Assembly (NCBI GenBank): GCA_010356995.1
Contig: ML996696.1
Coordinates: 126,364 to 190,363 of the forward strand
Reading direction: 5' to 3'
DNA from: Trichodelitschia bisporula
Lineage: Eukaryota
DNA length: 64,000 bases
Shown here: positions 10,798 to 15,944 of the stretch, piece after piece
Position numbering within the stretch: position 1 is the first letter of the stretch
Layout of the letters: the number at the start of each line of letters is the position of its first letter
Notes under the pieces: generated by a model
What the model was told of the DNA's origin: nothing
Seen by the model: only the letters and a program-made list of their open reading frames with translations
Database searches by the model: none
Translations under genes and position numbers: made by a program

Positions 10798-10941
10798 GTT
10801 GGGCCTGGAACAGGCTGACGTTGCTGGGTCGTTTGGTGAATGGTAGCGGTTAAATGATGTTCCGGCGGAACTAGTCCGCGCCCTCCGAGCTTTTAAGCTC
10901 AACCCGCGAGAACTTTGCATCCCGAATTTGGCCAAAGCGAC

Positions 10942-11417
10942 ATGAAGCCCTCAAGCAGGTTGCTGGCGACTGCCAGCTCGGTCATTACGAACAATCCGAA
11001 CCGCGCTCAGCCGCAAGCTCTTCTCCCACCTCTCCACCTGTACAGGCGCGTGTTGCGTGCTCAGCGCAAGCTGCCGAGGGACCTTCGGGTACTGGGAGAC
11101 ACCTTTATCAAGCAAGAGTTTCGGCAGCACAAAGATGTTGAGAACCCGTTGCAGCTTGTAGGTGTACTCAATGCCAGTTGAGACCTCGCTGACAAGATAG
11201 GTCGGCTTCCTTAGTAGCTGGCAGCTGTTTGCGCAGAACCTTGAGGGTGACACTTGGAGGGCTGGCAAGCTTGACAAGGCTATCTTTGAGAAGATGAGCG
11301 GTTAGAATGACCCACAAATGTGAGGTGTCAATGCTGAATGGAATAGACGATCAAAAGGTGCAGCTGTACGAACTCATGCTGGCTGCCCGCAAGGGTGACG
11401 CAGACGAGAGCCAGTGA
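10942..11417 (+). CDS. SDH7: Succinate dehydrogenase assembly factor 3 (Sdh7/Acn9), LYR family; introns 11158-11200 and 11301-11346
   Basis: LLPPLHLYRRVLRAQRKLP...LGDTFIKQEFRQHK...VGFLSSWQ...KMSDDQKVQLYELM. Canonical introns restore the frame. Confidence 0.92.
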
Positions 11418-11567
11418 AGGCTTGCACCGTGAAAGGCGGCATTCACGAGAGCCTTGCGCATAAAAGCTCGTTGACCTTTACCTCCTGCAATCTCCAAACT
11501 CACAGCTACCGATATGAGTGAGCGCGCGGCTTCGTTGGCTGAAGAAATTGGACAACAGGCGTGAGAG

Positions 11568-11870
11568 ATGTGCCACACAACACTCCTCCGCCATCGCTGC
11601 GGACACCTCTTCCTGGTTCTGCAGTATCCGTGTGCGCCGGGCCGCGACTTGATGGCCTGTCCGAACTTCTACGACGGCGCAACGAGCTACAACCACACGA
11701 GGATATCGGAACATCGGGCGCCGCCGCATAGCTGTCCGCTGTGCCACTTCCACGGCAACTACAACCGGCGGTACTGCCGTCAAGTTCTCCGCGATCAGAG
11801 CGGTGTGCGACTTGGTCTTGGTCCGTCGCGCCATCATCCGGGCGTTGACTGTCCGTGCGTGGTTATGTAG
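11568..11870 (+). CDS. Small Cys/His-rich protein ending in CaaX (CVVM)
   Basis: MC-x8-CGH...PC...CP...CPLC pattern and C-terminal DCPCVVM. Paralogous to the next gene. Confidence 0.75.
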   Translation: MCHTTLLRHRCGHLFLVLQYPCAPGRDLMACPNFYDGATSYNHTRISEHRAPPHSCPLCHFHGNYNRRYCRQVLRDQSGVRLGLGPSRHHPGVDCPCVVM

Positions 11871-12063
11871 TGCACTGCACCGCTCCTTCCGCACCACATT
11901 GTCCCAGAAACGTCATCCCCGCCAACTCGACCCCGTAAATCAACTGCCCGGCCTCGACAACACTTGCATTCTGACAACAAACCTGCACCTTCTCATTTCA
12001 ACAACAATTCGGACGCGCATCGCAACACAATCATCACAGAGTTATCGCCGCCATATCGTCAAA

Positions 12064-12861
12064 ATGTGTTTGTGCGATCACTTTGTCCACCCATGCGGCC
12101 ACGCCTACCTCCTGCTCAAGGATCCCTGTGAGCCGGATCGCACCTTTTTAAACTGCCCCGTCTTCCATTACGGCACTTTGGAGTTCCTCAACACGAGTCC
12201 GCCGTTCCCCGCCCGCAATGTCGAACCCGGTACCTGCCCGATATGCGATATACCCGCACCTCTTGATGATCGCTACGTGCAGCTCGTGAGCCGACACCGC
12301 ATTCCTGGCCATCGGAGCATCTACTTCTGCTTCGACGATGACGGCATGGCCAACCGCTATGATCATTACGACAGGTACGATGAGCGGGGGCGTCACCGGT
12401 ACGCTCGCCACGATCGCTTGGACCCGGATGGCGGCAACTACTATAGGAGCGTGCGATACGACAACCAGGTCACTCTCTATAATGATGGCAACCCGGGCAA
12501 CCAGCTCGGTCTCTACAATGGTGGCGACCGGGTCCGCCTCTACGATGGTGCAGGCCCGCTCTTCAACCGCAGCAATCGGTTTGGCCCTCTTTACAATCGT
12601 GGCGATCAATTCGGTTCTTTCTACAGCGGTAGCAACCAGTACGGTTCTTTGTTCGACCACATTGAGCGGTACGGTCTTGATCCCAACATCGTTGATCAGC
12701 ACGTAATGTGTCGTCGGCGCCGGACTAGGTCGACCCATACGCGCCGTTCCAGATACCACACGCCTGATGTCCATTCCACCACGAGGTATGAGCGGAACGA
12801 ACGCTACGAGCGCAACTACAATCGTGGGGGCAATCAGTGTGGGAGCTGTTCGGTTATGTAA
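12064..12861 (+). CDS. Cys/His-rich protein with N/G/Y-rich repeats ending in CaaX (CSVM)
   Basis: aaaATG context, MC-x8-CGH...PC...CP...CPIC aligned with the upstream paralog, C-terminal QCGSCSVM. Confidence 0.75.
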   Translation: MCLCDHFVHPCGHAYLLLKDPCEPDRTFLNCPVFHYGTLEFLNTSPPFPARNVEPGTCPICDIPAPLDDRYVQLVSRHRIPGHRSIYFCFDDDGMANRYDHYDRYDERGRHRYARHDRLDPDGGNYYRSVRYDNQVTLYNDGNPGNQLGLYNGGDRVRLYDGAGPLFNRSNRFGPLYNRGDQFGSFYSGSNQYGSLFDHIERYGLDPNIVDQHVMCRRRRTRSTHTRRSRYHTPDVHSTTRYERNERYERNYNRGGNQCGSCSVM

Positions 12862-13231
12862 GGCTGCGCGATCTGTCCTGTGACGTGGTTTTGTCTGATC
12901 ATCACCACGGCTGGCAGCCCGTCGTACCCCTACCGGTTTGCAAGCCCTTGGATCTGAACTGCGCCCCCGAGTTTGCCCTCACAATTCGACGAGAGATTTA
13001 CTATGCACTCTTGCACGGTTTTCACCCGCTTTGTCGCTGCCACTTCACGCCTGAATTTCTCCTATGGCAGCCCCCACATTGGACCCCTCGATTAGCCAAC
13101 ACCATACATCTCGGAAAGACTTCCATGGACACCTGCTGGTACCTTCAACTGGTTGTTATCATCGCTTCCACCCTGACCATGACTCCGGAACGCCTTGCCT
13201 AGGTAAGATATAGGCCCCCCTTCCTTCTCCT

Positions 13232-13312
13232 GCGGATGATTATACATTTTTAACCCTGAGTGCTACGGCGCGACGAGGATCAAAACGCAACACTCTAATT
13301 TTTTCATGACGC
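13232..13312 (+). ncRNA. Intronic box C/D snoRNA, copy 1
   Basis: GCG/CGC terminal stem, C box ATGATTA, D' CTGA, D box ATGA. Guide AACACTCTAATTTTTTC is complementary to the conserved 18S rRNA sequence GAAAAAAUUAGAGUGUU. Lies inside a GTAAGA...GCTAAC...CAG intron (13203 to about 13376). Confidence 0.85.
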
Positions 13313-13508
13313 TTATCTTATACGATTCATGTTCCTGAGACCCGGGCGAAGAGATGCTAACGAGGTCAGCCTGCAGATCGTCATCGATTATGAAATGGCC
13401 TCGGACTCCGCCTCGGACTTTAGCGGTGGATTCTCAGTGACGTACATTTTCGTCGTCGGGTTACCGGAAGGGTACGTGGCCTCTTTTCTTCCCCTTCTCA
13501 TTGCTCCT

Positions 13509-13591
13509 GGCGGATGATTATTCCTTTTTAACCCTGATGCTTCGGCTTCTGAAGATCAAAAACAGCAACACTTTAATTTTTTGATGACGCC
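13509..13591 (+). ncRNA. Intronic box C/D snoRNA, copy 2 (paralog of copy 1)
   Basis: GGCG/CGCC stem, ATGATTA, CTTTTTAAC-C-CTGA, C' TGAAGA, AACACTTTAATTTTTT-G-ATGA. Lies inside a GTACGT...GCTGAC...CAG intron (13472 to about 13651). Confidence 0.85.
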
Positions 13592-13820
13592 TTTCGTATC
13601 CAGTACTCTCATTGCACAAAGTGAATGGACTCGGCTGACGATGTAAAGCAGATCTTTCAGTTGGGGGCACTCGGTTTCCATCGTGGACGTATGGGTGGTT
13701 GAGGAAGTATTAACATAGTGCATCTACGAGTACCTAGACAAAATCTTACAATCACTTCCCACCAATGCTCAAGACGTGACAATATATTTTCTCGATTACA
13801 TTACACTACCCAACGCGGCT

Positions 13821-15944
13821 CTACCGCCGCCTACTAACCCCCTTCTTCCCATTCTCCTGCCCCAGCCCACCAACCTCCTCACTCAACTCCTGCCACAGCT
13901 GCCCGATTCCCACTCGCTTCGCAGGCAACATGGAATACTGCAGGCTGTACAGGTTCTTGCGGTGGATGGGCGGGACAAAGCGCCCGGTCGCCAGGCACAG
14001 CATCACCCCGGGCGACGCGTAGTGCTTGCGGATGCGGTTGCCCAGGCTGACGTAGCTGTTGAGCATCGCACTGAGGGGGAGGGGGACGGACTGGTGCGGG
14101 TTAGCTGGGTCTCGCTTCGGGGATGTGTTTACTGGGCTGGGGGACGGTACCTTCAAGTGTACAAGCGCAACATGCGCCTCCCCCTCCTGCACGGGCGGCA
14201 CACACAACTCAAACTTAATCCCCCCCGGCAACCTCCTACTATCCTTAAACCGCAGCATGAGCGCAAAAAGGGGAAAATGATTCAAACACGCAAGACACGT
14301 ATCCAGCCCCGCCTTGAGCATTATAATCGCCATCCGGGCCCCGGCGAACGTGATGTAGAACACGAAGACCGTGGGGAGGAGGAAGAAAAGGAGGGTGAAG
14401 AGGATGGTGCCGAGGAGGAGTTGGTCCAGGTCGTAGTCGCAGGAGTCGATTCGGCTGCGGAGGACGTTGTTTTTTTTGCCTCGGAAGAGGTGGAAGAGCG
14501 ACATGATGATGGTGAGTTGCCAGTGGAAGATCCGGGCGCTGGCGGCGTAGAAACTGTAGACGTGTAGCGTGAGGACGGAGACGAGGTCTGAGAAGAGCGA
14601 TATGGGCATGGTGGCGCCCGCGAAGGCGCTGAAGCCGATGAAGCGGACTACGGCGGGTAAGTGCGGGCGTAGCACTGCCATGCATCCGGCCCAGTAGTCG
14701 ATGACCCAGAGGAACAAGTCGCCTAGGAAAGTAGCGAGTTCGGTGTTGAGCTTGAGGCCTGCGGGCCAGTCCATCAACCACGCGATCATGCGCTGCAGCC
14801 CGTCGATCGTCCACGCATCGAGCACGCGGTCCAGTTGCAGCGCCACCAGGTCCGCGTTGTCGATTATGTAGCTGCCCAGCGCAATACCGATGATCACGTC
14901 GTTCGCGACCAGCCACAAGCTGTTGTAGAAGCGGATATACTCCGGGTGGCTGTGGGTTATACTCTGCCATGTCTGCTTCCGGCGGCGCAGGGTCAGGTAC
15001 TGCTTCGGCCAGTAGCAGAACTGTTGAAGCCGGATGTCGACCTGTTGCGCTGTGGCGCTGACGTCCTTGAGCGCCGCGTGCCCCGGAAACAAGCGCCAGT
15101 CCAGCACGTGCAAGACTAATTCGGCGGCCATGCGGTGCACGATGAGCCCGACGACGAAGAGCCGTGCGAAGACGGGGTATATCCATATTACGATCACGTG
15201 CCACAGGGCCAGTAACACGTAGTCCCACAGGTTAGTCGCGGACTTGACAACGCGTTCGCTGACGCTGAGGGCGCGCCGGGGCCGGGACCCTACGAGGCCT
15301 ACGTTGCGCTGGAGTAGAGCGTTGAGTTCGAAGGAACAGTTTATTTGCTCGATTATGATGGGCAGCAGCTTTTCCTTGGGCGTGTGCGCGTGCCAGACCA
15401 CGGTGTGCTGGCGCAGTTTCTCGACGAGCGCTTCTTTGCGCCGGCGTTCGCGCTCTTCGGCTGCTTCGACGCCGTCAAGGGGGGGGAACCCTTTTTCGCC
15501 GGCTTTGTCGCCTAGCGCGAGGGAGATGGGCGATAGGCTGAGGTACTGCATTTGCGTTGGGTGCGGGCGGTCGAACAGGATGATTTGGAACATGAGTGCC
15601 GTGGCGCCGGTGTAGAGGCGCGGGAAGCGCGTTTTGCGGTCTATGGACACGACGATGGATGCCGGGTTGAAGGCCGCGGGGGGGGAGCGCGGATTCACGG
15701 TCCCGAGGACCTGGAGCGCGCCCTTGCCGCAGCGTTCGAGGACGAGGGATATAGCATACGGACTATTGCGGTAGAGCGTCTCGAGGCGGAGCGCATTGTC
15801 CACGCTACGGAGCTCGACATCCTGCAGCACGGCCACGACCGTCATGTCCAGCTCTGAGTTGCGGAAGCCGACTAGCACGCCTGGCCGCGCTTCGGTGGGC
15901 GCGTCGGACGGCCAGAAGATGCGCATGAGGCCATTGTGGAGCAT
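13821..15944 (-). CDS. GPI1: GPI-GlcNAc transferase subunit Gpi1 (PIG-Q); in-frame 60-nt intron 14091-14150
   Basis: FYNSLWLVANDVIIG, WLMDWPAGLKLNTEL and LFRGKKNNVLRSRIDS...DQLLLGTILFT motifs. Confidence 0.96.
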   Translation of the reverse strand: MLHNGLMRIFWPSDAPTEARPGVLVGFRNSELDMTVVAVLQDVELRSVDNALRLETLYRNSPYAISLVLERCGKGALQVLGTVNPRSPPAAFNPASIVVSIDRKTRFPRLYTGATALMFQIILFDRPHPTQMQYLSLSPISLALGDKAGEKGFPPLDGVEAAEERERRRKEALVEKLRQHTVVWHAHTPKEKLLPIIIEQINCSFELNALLQRNVGLVGSRPRRALSVSERVVKSATNLWDYVLLALWHVIVIWIYPVFARLFVVGLIVHRMAAELVLHVLDWRLFPGHAALKDVSATAQQVDIRLQQFCYWPKQYLTLRRRKQTWQSITHSHPEYIRFYNSLWLVANDVIIGIALGSYIIDNADLVALQLDRVLDAWTIDGLQRMIAWLMDWPAGLKLNTELATFLGDLFLWVIDYWAGCMAVLRPHLPAVVRFIGFSAFAGATMPISLFSDLVSVLTLHVYSFYAASARIFHWQLTIIMSLFHLFRGKKNNVLRSRIDSCDYDLDQLLLGTILFTLLFFLLPTVFVFYITFAGARMAIIMLKAGLDTCLACLNHFPLFALMLRFKDSRRLPGGIKFELCVPPVQEGEAHVALVHLKVPSPSPVNTSPKRDPANPHQSVPLPLSAMLNSYVSLGNRIRKHYASPGVMLCLATGRFVPPIHRKNLYSLQYSMLPAKRVGIGQLWQELSEEVGGLGQENGKKGVSRRR

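Follow-up and report, generated by a model that had tools for sequence, protein, structure and literature searches.

The small nucleolar RNA (snoRNA) Afu-298 was cloned from Aspergillus fumigatus in 2008 (3 cDNA clones, 93 nt; Jöchl et al.; PMC2377427), where it was reported as an orphan from an intergenic location that gives a northern band of ~90 nt. The corresponding sequence, AM921940, was later assigned to family CD_41 of the fungal snoRNAome (Canzler et al. 2018; PMC5824354), and the Rfam family of box C/D snoRNAs named Afu_298 is RF01507. Here, a stretch of 64,000 nucleotides from Trichodelitschia bisporula (contig ML996696.1, positions 126,364 to 190,363 of the forward strand; the whole stretch is called the window below) was examined for a pair of similar box C/D snoRNAs. 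The pair very probably represents two paralogous Afu_298 (RF01507; AM921940; CD_41) members, one in each of two consecutive spliced introns of a plus-strand RNA polymerase II (Pol II) transcript.

As described in the text of the 2018 survey (PMC5824354), paralogues of CD_41 persist in the Leotiomycetes, and the family has left no trace in the Saccharomycotina. Two other families of the same survey are relevant to the targets discussed below: snR47 (CD_67), the yeast guide for A619, which is treated as separate and confined to the Saccharomycotina, and snR53 (CD_11), a widely conserved separate family that guides 18S-796. Table 1 of that paper gives putative conserved targets for the remaining A. 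fumigatus orphans, and a target assignment for CD_41 may already stand there or in the supplements. Elsewhere, the table of 55 C/D snoRNAs from Neurospora crassa (PMC2780460) contains no guide for either the A619 equivalent or the A-run site described below, the T. rubrum non-coding RNA paper does not mention Afu-298, and the main text of the Chaetomium thermophilum RiboMethSeq paper (PMC12723226) names no 18S Am near the A-run site. With regard to gene organization, one snoRNA per intron within non-coding, UHG-like host genes has been described in N. crassa (Liu et al. 2009; PMC2780460).

Two Afu_298 members in consecutive introns

The whole 64 kb window was scanned with Rfam at gathering threshold, which for RF01507 is a score of 40 bits. 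Exactly two matches were returned, both of them to RF01507: positions 13232–13311 with 57.6 bits (E 3.4e-05) and positions 13510–13589 with 61.0 bits (E 8e-06), the E values being those for the 64 kb window, so that chance is a very poor account of either match. Both copies align to the full model, positions 1–93, and the corresponding nhmmer values are 3e-17 and 1.3e-16. Models for snR47 and SNORD36 showed no similarity to this region, with no match at E ≤ 10 in 12900–14000, and no other family gave a match in 10800–13900 at E ≤ 5, apart from two meaningless weak ones.

Copy 1 (13232–13312, plus strand, 81 nt) carries a C box AUGAUUA at 13236–13242, a D' box CUGA at 13256–13259, a C'-like element ACGAGGA at 13273–13279 and a D box AUGA at 13306–13309; its D' guide lies at 13247–13254 and its D guide at 13289–13305. 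The ends are joined by a terminal stem of 3 bp, GCG/CGC, formed by 13232–13234 with 13310–13312. Copy 2 (13509–13591, plus strand, 83 nt) has the same C box at 13514–13520, the same D' box at 13534–13537, a C'-like CUGAAGA at 13549–13555 and the same D box at 13584–13587, with guides at 13524–13532 (D') and 13567–13582 (D, including one G:U pair) and a terminal stem of 4 bp, GGCG/CGCC, formed by 13509–13512 with 13588–13591. In both copies, a single unpaired nucleotide separates the terminal stem from the C box.

Both guides are shared with the family. The upper-case consensus of RF01507 contains a D' block, UUUUUAAC followed by one nucleotide and CUGA, and a D block, ACACUCUAAUUUUUU followed by one nucleotide and AUGA; the corresponding parts of the window copies, UUUUUAAC-N-CUGA and CACU(C/U)UAAUUUUUU-N-AUGA, align to these upper-case columns. 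The window copies thus resemble Afu_298 over the full length of the model, in their C, D' and D boxes and in both guide blocks. They differ in length, with 80–83 nt against 93 model positions, and the spacer that precedes the D guide is shorter. An initial annotation of this DNA, made from the letters alone, had described two paralogous, intron-encoded, dual-guide box C/D snoRNAs, and the boxes, guides and terminal stems were all found as it had read them. Its suggestion that the pair was new is not supported because both copies exceed the RF01507 gathering score and the Rfam consensus (Afu_298) carries the same D' and D guide blocks, which is what that annotation itself had said would remove the novelty. 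The find is therefore real but largely ordinary, and adds to the Trichodelitschia bisporula genome the annotation of two snoRNA genes with their introns; what interest remains lies in a compensated k-turn, in targets for a family that was an orphan when first described, and in a predicted lineage-specific Am in an 18S A-run.

To place the copies within a transcript, contigs of two runs, X1 and X2, were aligned to window positions 11500–14000. In contigs of both runs, position 13202 is joined directly to 13370, and the segment skipped is intron 1 (13203–13369, 167 nt). The X1 contig also joins 13471 to 13652, skipping intron 2 (13472–13651, 180 nt), while the X2 contig ends at 13471. Both skipped segments are bounded by GT..AG on the plus strand. 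The simplest reading of contigs from which exactly two GT..AG-bounded segments are missing is spliced RNA, on evidence that is neither stranded nor read-level. Intron 1 opens with GUAAGA, has a branch-site-like GCUAAC at 13356–13361 and closes with CAG at 13367–13369; intron 2 opens with GUACGU, has GCUGAC at 13634–13639 and also closes with CAG. The branch-site A falls 47–48 nt downstream of the snoRNA in each case. The flanking exons, all on the plus strand, are the 3' part of exon 1 (12862–13202), exon 2 (13370–13471, 102 nt), which is present as a contig piece in both X1 and X2, and the start of exon 3 (13652–13800), covered by an X1 contig piece from 13651 onward. The two joints give a spliced host transcript with one snoRNA per intron, and both introns lie where the initial annotation had put them.

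Across 83 aligned columns, the two copies are identical at 65 (78%), compared with only 16 of 43 and 25 of 61 in the intron flanks. Conserved snoRNA bodies beside diverged flanks fit an old duplication with selection on the bodies. A maturation pathway is proposed: after splicing and debranching, exonucleases would trim each intron to an snoRNP-protected RNA of 81–83 nt, and small RNAs of this kind are expected to accumulate in Trichodelitschia bisporula.

A U:A pair in the k-turn and its covariation in the family

A pattern scan of metagenome contigs was used to collect homologues, giving 71 loci (L023–L093). Two of these, L030 and L037, have neither a C nor a D box and were set aside as chance matches; before this step the set held 50 distinct sequences, and the family members are not independent of one another. 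A further locus, L034, is cut by a contig end, and the 70 parsed sequences comprise 68 loci and the two window copies. When 20 of the metagenome homologues were tested with the Rfam model, 19 passed the RF01507 gathering score, and L033 failed.

The D box AUGA, noted as non-canonical in the initial annotation, could be accounted for by this comparison. In the k-turn of box C/D RNAs, position 6 of the C box and position 1 of the D box form a Watson–Crick pair of stem II. Among the 70 parsed sequences these positions are U and A in 62 and G and C in 8 (7 distinct sequences, in approximately three groups), and no mixed combination occurs. Because the two positions covary as U/A or G/C and are never mixed, AUGAUUA/AUGA is a compensated k-turn variant and not a defect, in which U:A replaces the pair between G at C-box position 6 and C at D-box position 1. 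The text of van Nues et al. 2011 (PMC3116282) describes the k-turn only as stem-loop-stem. The exchange also offers a reason for the family having escaped target prediction as an orphan, since programs that seek a CUGA D box would miss AUGA. In the mature RNAs, the C box AUGAUUA would fold with the D box AUGA into the k-turn at the ends of the molecule, with U:A in place of the usual G:C.

Terminal stems of 3–5 bp were found in 50 of the 69 members, and they covary between lineages, with GGCG/CGCC, UGC/GCA and UUGC/GCAA as examples. Position 2 of the C box is variable across the family (AUGAUUA, AAGAUUA, AGGAUUA, ACGAUUA and CUGAUUA), and the GA at positions 3–4 is constant.

Intronic placement appears to be typical of the Afu_298 family. 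At 61 of the 69 homologous loci, a 5' splice-site-like motif was located within 150 nt upstream (median 32 nt), together with a branch-site-like motif plus YAG downstream (median 52 nt); the implied median intron length is 182 nt, all of these figures being obtained with loose motifs and no shuffled control. Two copies in adjacent introns, as seen in the window, are rare by comparison: a second family copy within 500 nt was found at only 3 of the 69 loci (L033, L081 and L090, one sequence type), and there the second copy has a different D guide. At these three loci (positions 267–317 and 484–563) an upstream Afu_298-like copy sits in the preceding intron, with the D' guide and boxes kept and the D guide different.

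Predicted targets in 18S rRNA

For the rRNA side of the pairing, a 27-nt 18S pattern was searched against bacterial and archaeal assemblies, which gave 22 fragments (L001–L022); in viral contigs an 18S pattern gave 0 matches. The 22 are short eukaryotic 18S fragments in assemblies filed as bacterial or archaeal genomes or metagenome-assembled genomes, and are contaminating contigs; 3 of the 22 were checked, and all proved to be Rfam SSU_rRNA_eukarya. A box-anchored scan was then carried out on the 7 longest of the 22, in which pairing had to start at positions 1–3 from the box and to include at least 8 contiguous pairs with no more than one G:U. The longest pairing of each guide was found at the site named below in 7 of 7 fragments.

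At GUUAAAAA(G), the D' guide of copy 1 forms 8 bp and that of copy 2 forms 9 bp, with the first A at position 5. This was the only anchored site in 6 of the 7 fragments; L004 is a variant with G there, and copy 2 has one extra 8-bp match. The D guide pairs at a run of A residues (the A-run) over 17 bp in copy 1 and 16 bp in copy 2, the latter including one G:U, and places the fourth A at position 5, in line with the fourth A that the initial annotation had derived from the D+5 rule. The D guide also has minor 8-bp matches elsewhere; those of copy 1 occur in 6 of the 7 fragments, those of copy 2 in 2 of the 7. The D-guide duplex energies, always at the expected site, are −20.2 kcal/mol for copy 1 and −15.9 kcal/mol for copy 2. 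The D guide thus has the antisense element by which the class is recognized, at least ~10 nt long and ending by the D/D' box with the target at the fifth pair.

To express these sites in yeast numbering, the analysis used the 14 of the 22 fragments in which GUUAAAAAG precedes the A-run target by 128–144 nt. The first A of GUUAAAAAG was set to 619, and the bases at other yeast 2'-O-methyl positions (Yang et al. 2016; PMC5199042) were checked. Agreement was 8 of 8 for L005 and 4 of 4 for L011, and with a shifted anchor L005 reached at most 5 of 8. Agreement was lower in the other 12 fragments (3 of 10 to 9 of 14), which is in keeping with indels in those taxa, and zero shift was the best or tied best in 10 of the 14. 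From this numbering check, the D' target adenosine is identified as the Am619 equivalent, and the fourth A of the A-run corresponds to approximately A755–756 in yeast numbering.

Yeast Am619 is equivalent to human Am668, Arabidopsis Am623 and Dictyostelium Am612 (PMC8583080; PMC8817022). Box-anchored pairing, the numbering check and these site tables together support the assignment of the D' guide to the yeast Am619/human Am668 site in the initial annotation. Its remark that the A-run carries no listed yeast 2'-O-methyl was likewise correct: yeast 18S has no ribose methyl between Am619 and Am796 (PMC5199042). For Arabidopsis, only Am780, Am796 and Am801 are listed in the same interval, Am801 being equivalent to yeast 796, so the A-run site is unlisted there too. 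Yeast Am796, the snR53 site, was considered as a target of the D guide and rejected. The window D-guide site lies ~40 nt 5' of A796 and 128–144 nt after the A619 site, and the likeness to snR53 (CD_11) is that of another box C/D guide to the same 18S domain.

A comparable likeness is found with yeast snR47 and with U36 (SNORD36) of vertebrates and plants, each of which directs one guide to this conserved 18S adenosine. Their other guide addresses large-subunit rRNA, whereas the second guide of the window copies addresses 18S. Afu_298 itself was published as an orphan, whereas targets are proposed here for the window copies.

By geometry, pairing of the D' guide with GUUAAAAA(G) would align the fifth nucleotide counted from D' with the first A, which is equivalent to Am619, and the 16–17 bp formed by the D guide on the A-run segment would bring the fourth A (~A755 by yeast numbering) to the corresponding fifth position. 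As members of the box C/D class, the RNAs would be bound by Snu13, Nop56, Nop58 and Nop1, and Fibrillarin/Nop1 would be the enzyme that methylates the 2'-OH of each of the two 18S adenosines. We put at about even the chances that Afu_298/CD_41 is the Am619-equivalent guide of fungi outside the Saccharomycotina and also installs a lineage-specific 2'-O-methyl at the fourth A (~A755), with the D' guide perhaps reinforced by its spacer. For filamentous fungi this yields two predicted sites of 18S methylation, and at one of these no methylation is known from yeast or Arabidopsis. For the D' site, the assignment draws on geometry, conservation and the complementary distribution of CD_41 and snR47, and not on energy.

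The suggested reinforcement comes from a second complementarity beside the methylation site. In 13 of the 13 18S fragments with enough upstream sequence, GUUGUUG stands directly 5' of the A619 site, separated from it by two nucleotides (CA in 11 of the 13). Its exact complement, CAACAAC, occurs in the spacer before the D guide in 66 of the 69 snoRNA homologues. The window copies have GCAAC instead (13286–13291 and 13565–13569), which is complementary to GUUGC of the same 18S stretch. Such "extra base-pairing" beside a methylation site is described as stimulating methylation and as occurring in snoRNAs with the shortest guides, snR47 being an example (van Nues et al. 2011; PMC3116282). By analogy, the short D' guide may be reinforced by pairing of the CAACAAC or GCAAC spacer element with 18S GUUGUUG(C).

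Several points count against this interpretation of the locus. The D' guide offers only 8–9 base pairs, rich in A/U, and when the D' spacer was searched for duplexes in an unconstrained manner, the energy optimum fell at other 18S sites. Pairing was computed on 18S fragments of other eukaryotes in place of the species' own 18S, and guide targets were sought in 18S only, with the large subunit (25S) outside the comparison. In the metagenome scan, the search pattern fixed both guide cores, and the constancy of these cores in the 69 homologues is therefore by construction; independent support for guide conservation is confined to the Rfam consensus and the L033-type upstream paralogue detected with nhmmer. 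Among 71 family sequences, U replaces C in the D guide of copy 2 alone, which may mean relaxed constraint. Finally, the runs from which the transcript contigs derive are labelled "RNA?" in the record, a designation that is a guess.

Alternatively, the long D guide could direct no methylation at all. It might then serve as a folding chaperone, as already raised in the initial annotation, or provide the weak D' guide with a docking contact in the same domain of 18S. Such a role would suit the lack of a listed 2'-O-methyl at the A-run in yeast or Arabidopsis and the distance of only 128–144 nt between the two target sites. The absent yeast methyl is, however, uninformative because yeast is without the Afu_298/CD_41 family, and the Arabidopsis table does not place a CD_41 homologue at any of its sites. 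The D-guide duplex ends directly at the D box, in perfect register for the fifth-nucleotide rule, its 16–17 bp are within the normal range of guide lengths, and the D box is part of the compensated k-turn. A purely structural role for the D guide is regarded as unlikely.

Whether both copies would guide methylation was considered in the light of the C/U difference between them, which gives a G:U pair in the D-guide duplex, as the initial annotation had anticipated. If copy 2 were a decaying duplicate and only one copy functional, the weaker duplex energy of copy 2 would be explained, given its G:U pair and the G that faces the target G at position 1, as would its U at a position where it stands alone in the family. 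Against such decay, copy 2 has the higher Rfam score of the two, intact boxes, a longer terminal stem (4 bp), longer D' pairing (9 versus 8 bp) and a branch site at the family-typical distance; the snoRNA bodies have stayed 78% identical though the intron flanks diverged, and persistence of family paralogues is reported for the Leotiomycetes in the text of PMC5824354. Loss of function in copy 2 is judged quite improbable, slightly more so than the structural role for the D guide.

Host transcript and neighbouring genes

The initial annotation had called the host transcript non-coding, a description that holds for the exons next to the introns and is less secure further upstream. The 3' part of exon 1 has no credible open reading frame (ORF) by three-frame translation or in the ORF lists, and the spliced sequence 12862–13202 plus exon 2 plus 13652–13800 has stops in all three frames and likewise no credible ORF, whether in exon 2 or at the start of exon 3. 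The X1 contig (5003 nt) and the X2 contig (2299 nt) are nevertheless both unbroken from ~11003 through two ORFs, ORF A (11568–11870, plus strand, 100 aa) and ORF B (12064–12861, plus strand, 265 aa, with an N-terminal Cys/His-rich domain), to 13202 and then across the splice joint or joints. ORF B is therefore a possible coding part of the same transcript.

Because the contigs are collinear with these upstream ORFs, the introns could be 3'-untranslated-region (3'-UTR) introns of a small-protein gene, that of ORF B; the host would then be a coding mRNA, and its spliced form would probably be degraded by nonsense-mediated decay. Intron 1 begins 341 nt after the end of ORF B, and both contigs run without interruption from ORF A and ORF B into the joints. 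Furthermore, ORF A and ORF B are taken as real small-protein genes because the domain that they share has 100 further relatives at E ≤ 0.001. On the other side, contigs from a compact genome can fuse overlapping neighbour transcripts, and the X1 contig also enters the convergent Gpi1 gene; two separate ORFs on one contig would be unusual for a eukaryotic mRNA. The ORF A/B domain was found within 500 nt of none of the 69 homologous snoRNA loci, the tblastn searches with Gpi1, ORF A and ORF B giving 0 matches there, and non-coding snoRNA hosts are described as common in filamentous fungi (PMC2780460). A coding host of this kind is a substantial possibility, to which we attach somewhat less than even odds.

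Compared with UHG/GAS5-like hosts and the intronic C/D clusters of N. crassa, the locus is alike in that its host is spliced, each intron carries one snoRNA, and the exons alongside have no more than short ORFs. Those hosts carry different snoRNAs in their introns, whereas the window host has the same family in both, and the window host contig, in contrast to UHG/GAS5-like hosts, continues into upstream protein-coding ORFs.

Exon 3 meets the 3' end of a convergent gene on the minus strand (13821–15944), which encodes a homologue of Gpi1, a GPI-GlcNAc transferase component (PF05024, E 7.5e-112) and whose 3' end abuts the host exon. On the other side of the introns, ORF A and ORF B are 32% identical over their N-terminal 77 residues (E 6e-11). 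Neither ORF, nor any of 8 small relatives, gave a match in Pfam, and a word-indexed search with ORF B recovered only ORF B itself. With a profile of the domain, 101 proteins were found at E ≤ 0.001 (ORF B included) and 14 at E ≤ 1e-10 among 1.84 billion representatives. These proteins are mostly 100–200 aa long and begin with the domain, which gives the appearance of a small-protein family not yet characterised. The shared Cys/His-rich domain spans ~78 aa, and its invariant residues include M1, C2, C11-G12-H13, P21-C22, C31-P32 and C58-P59.

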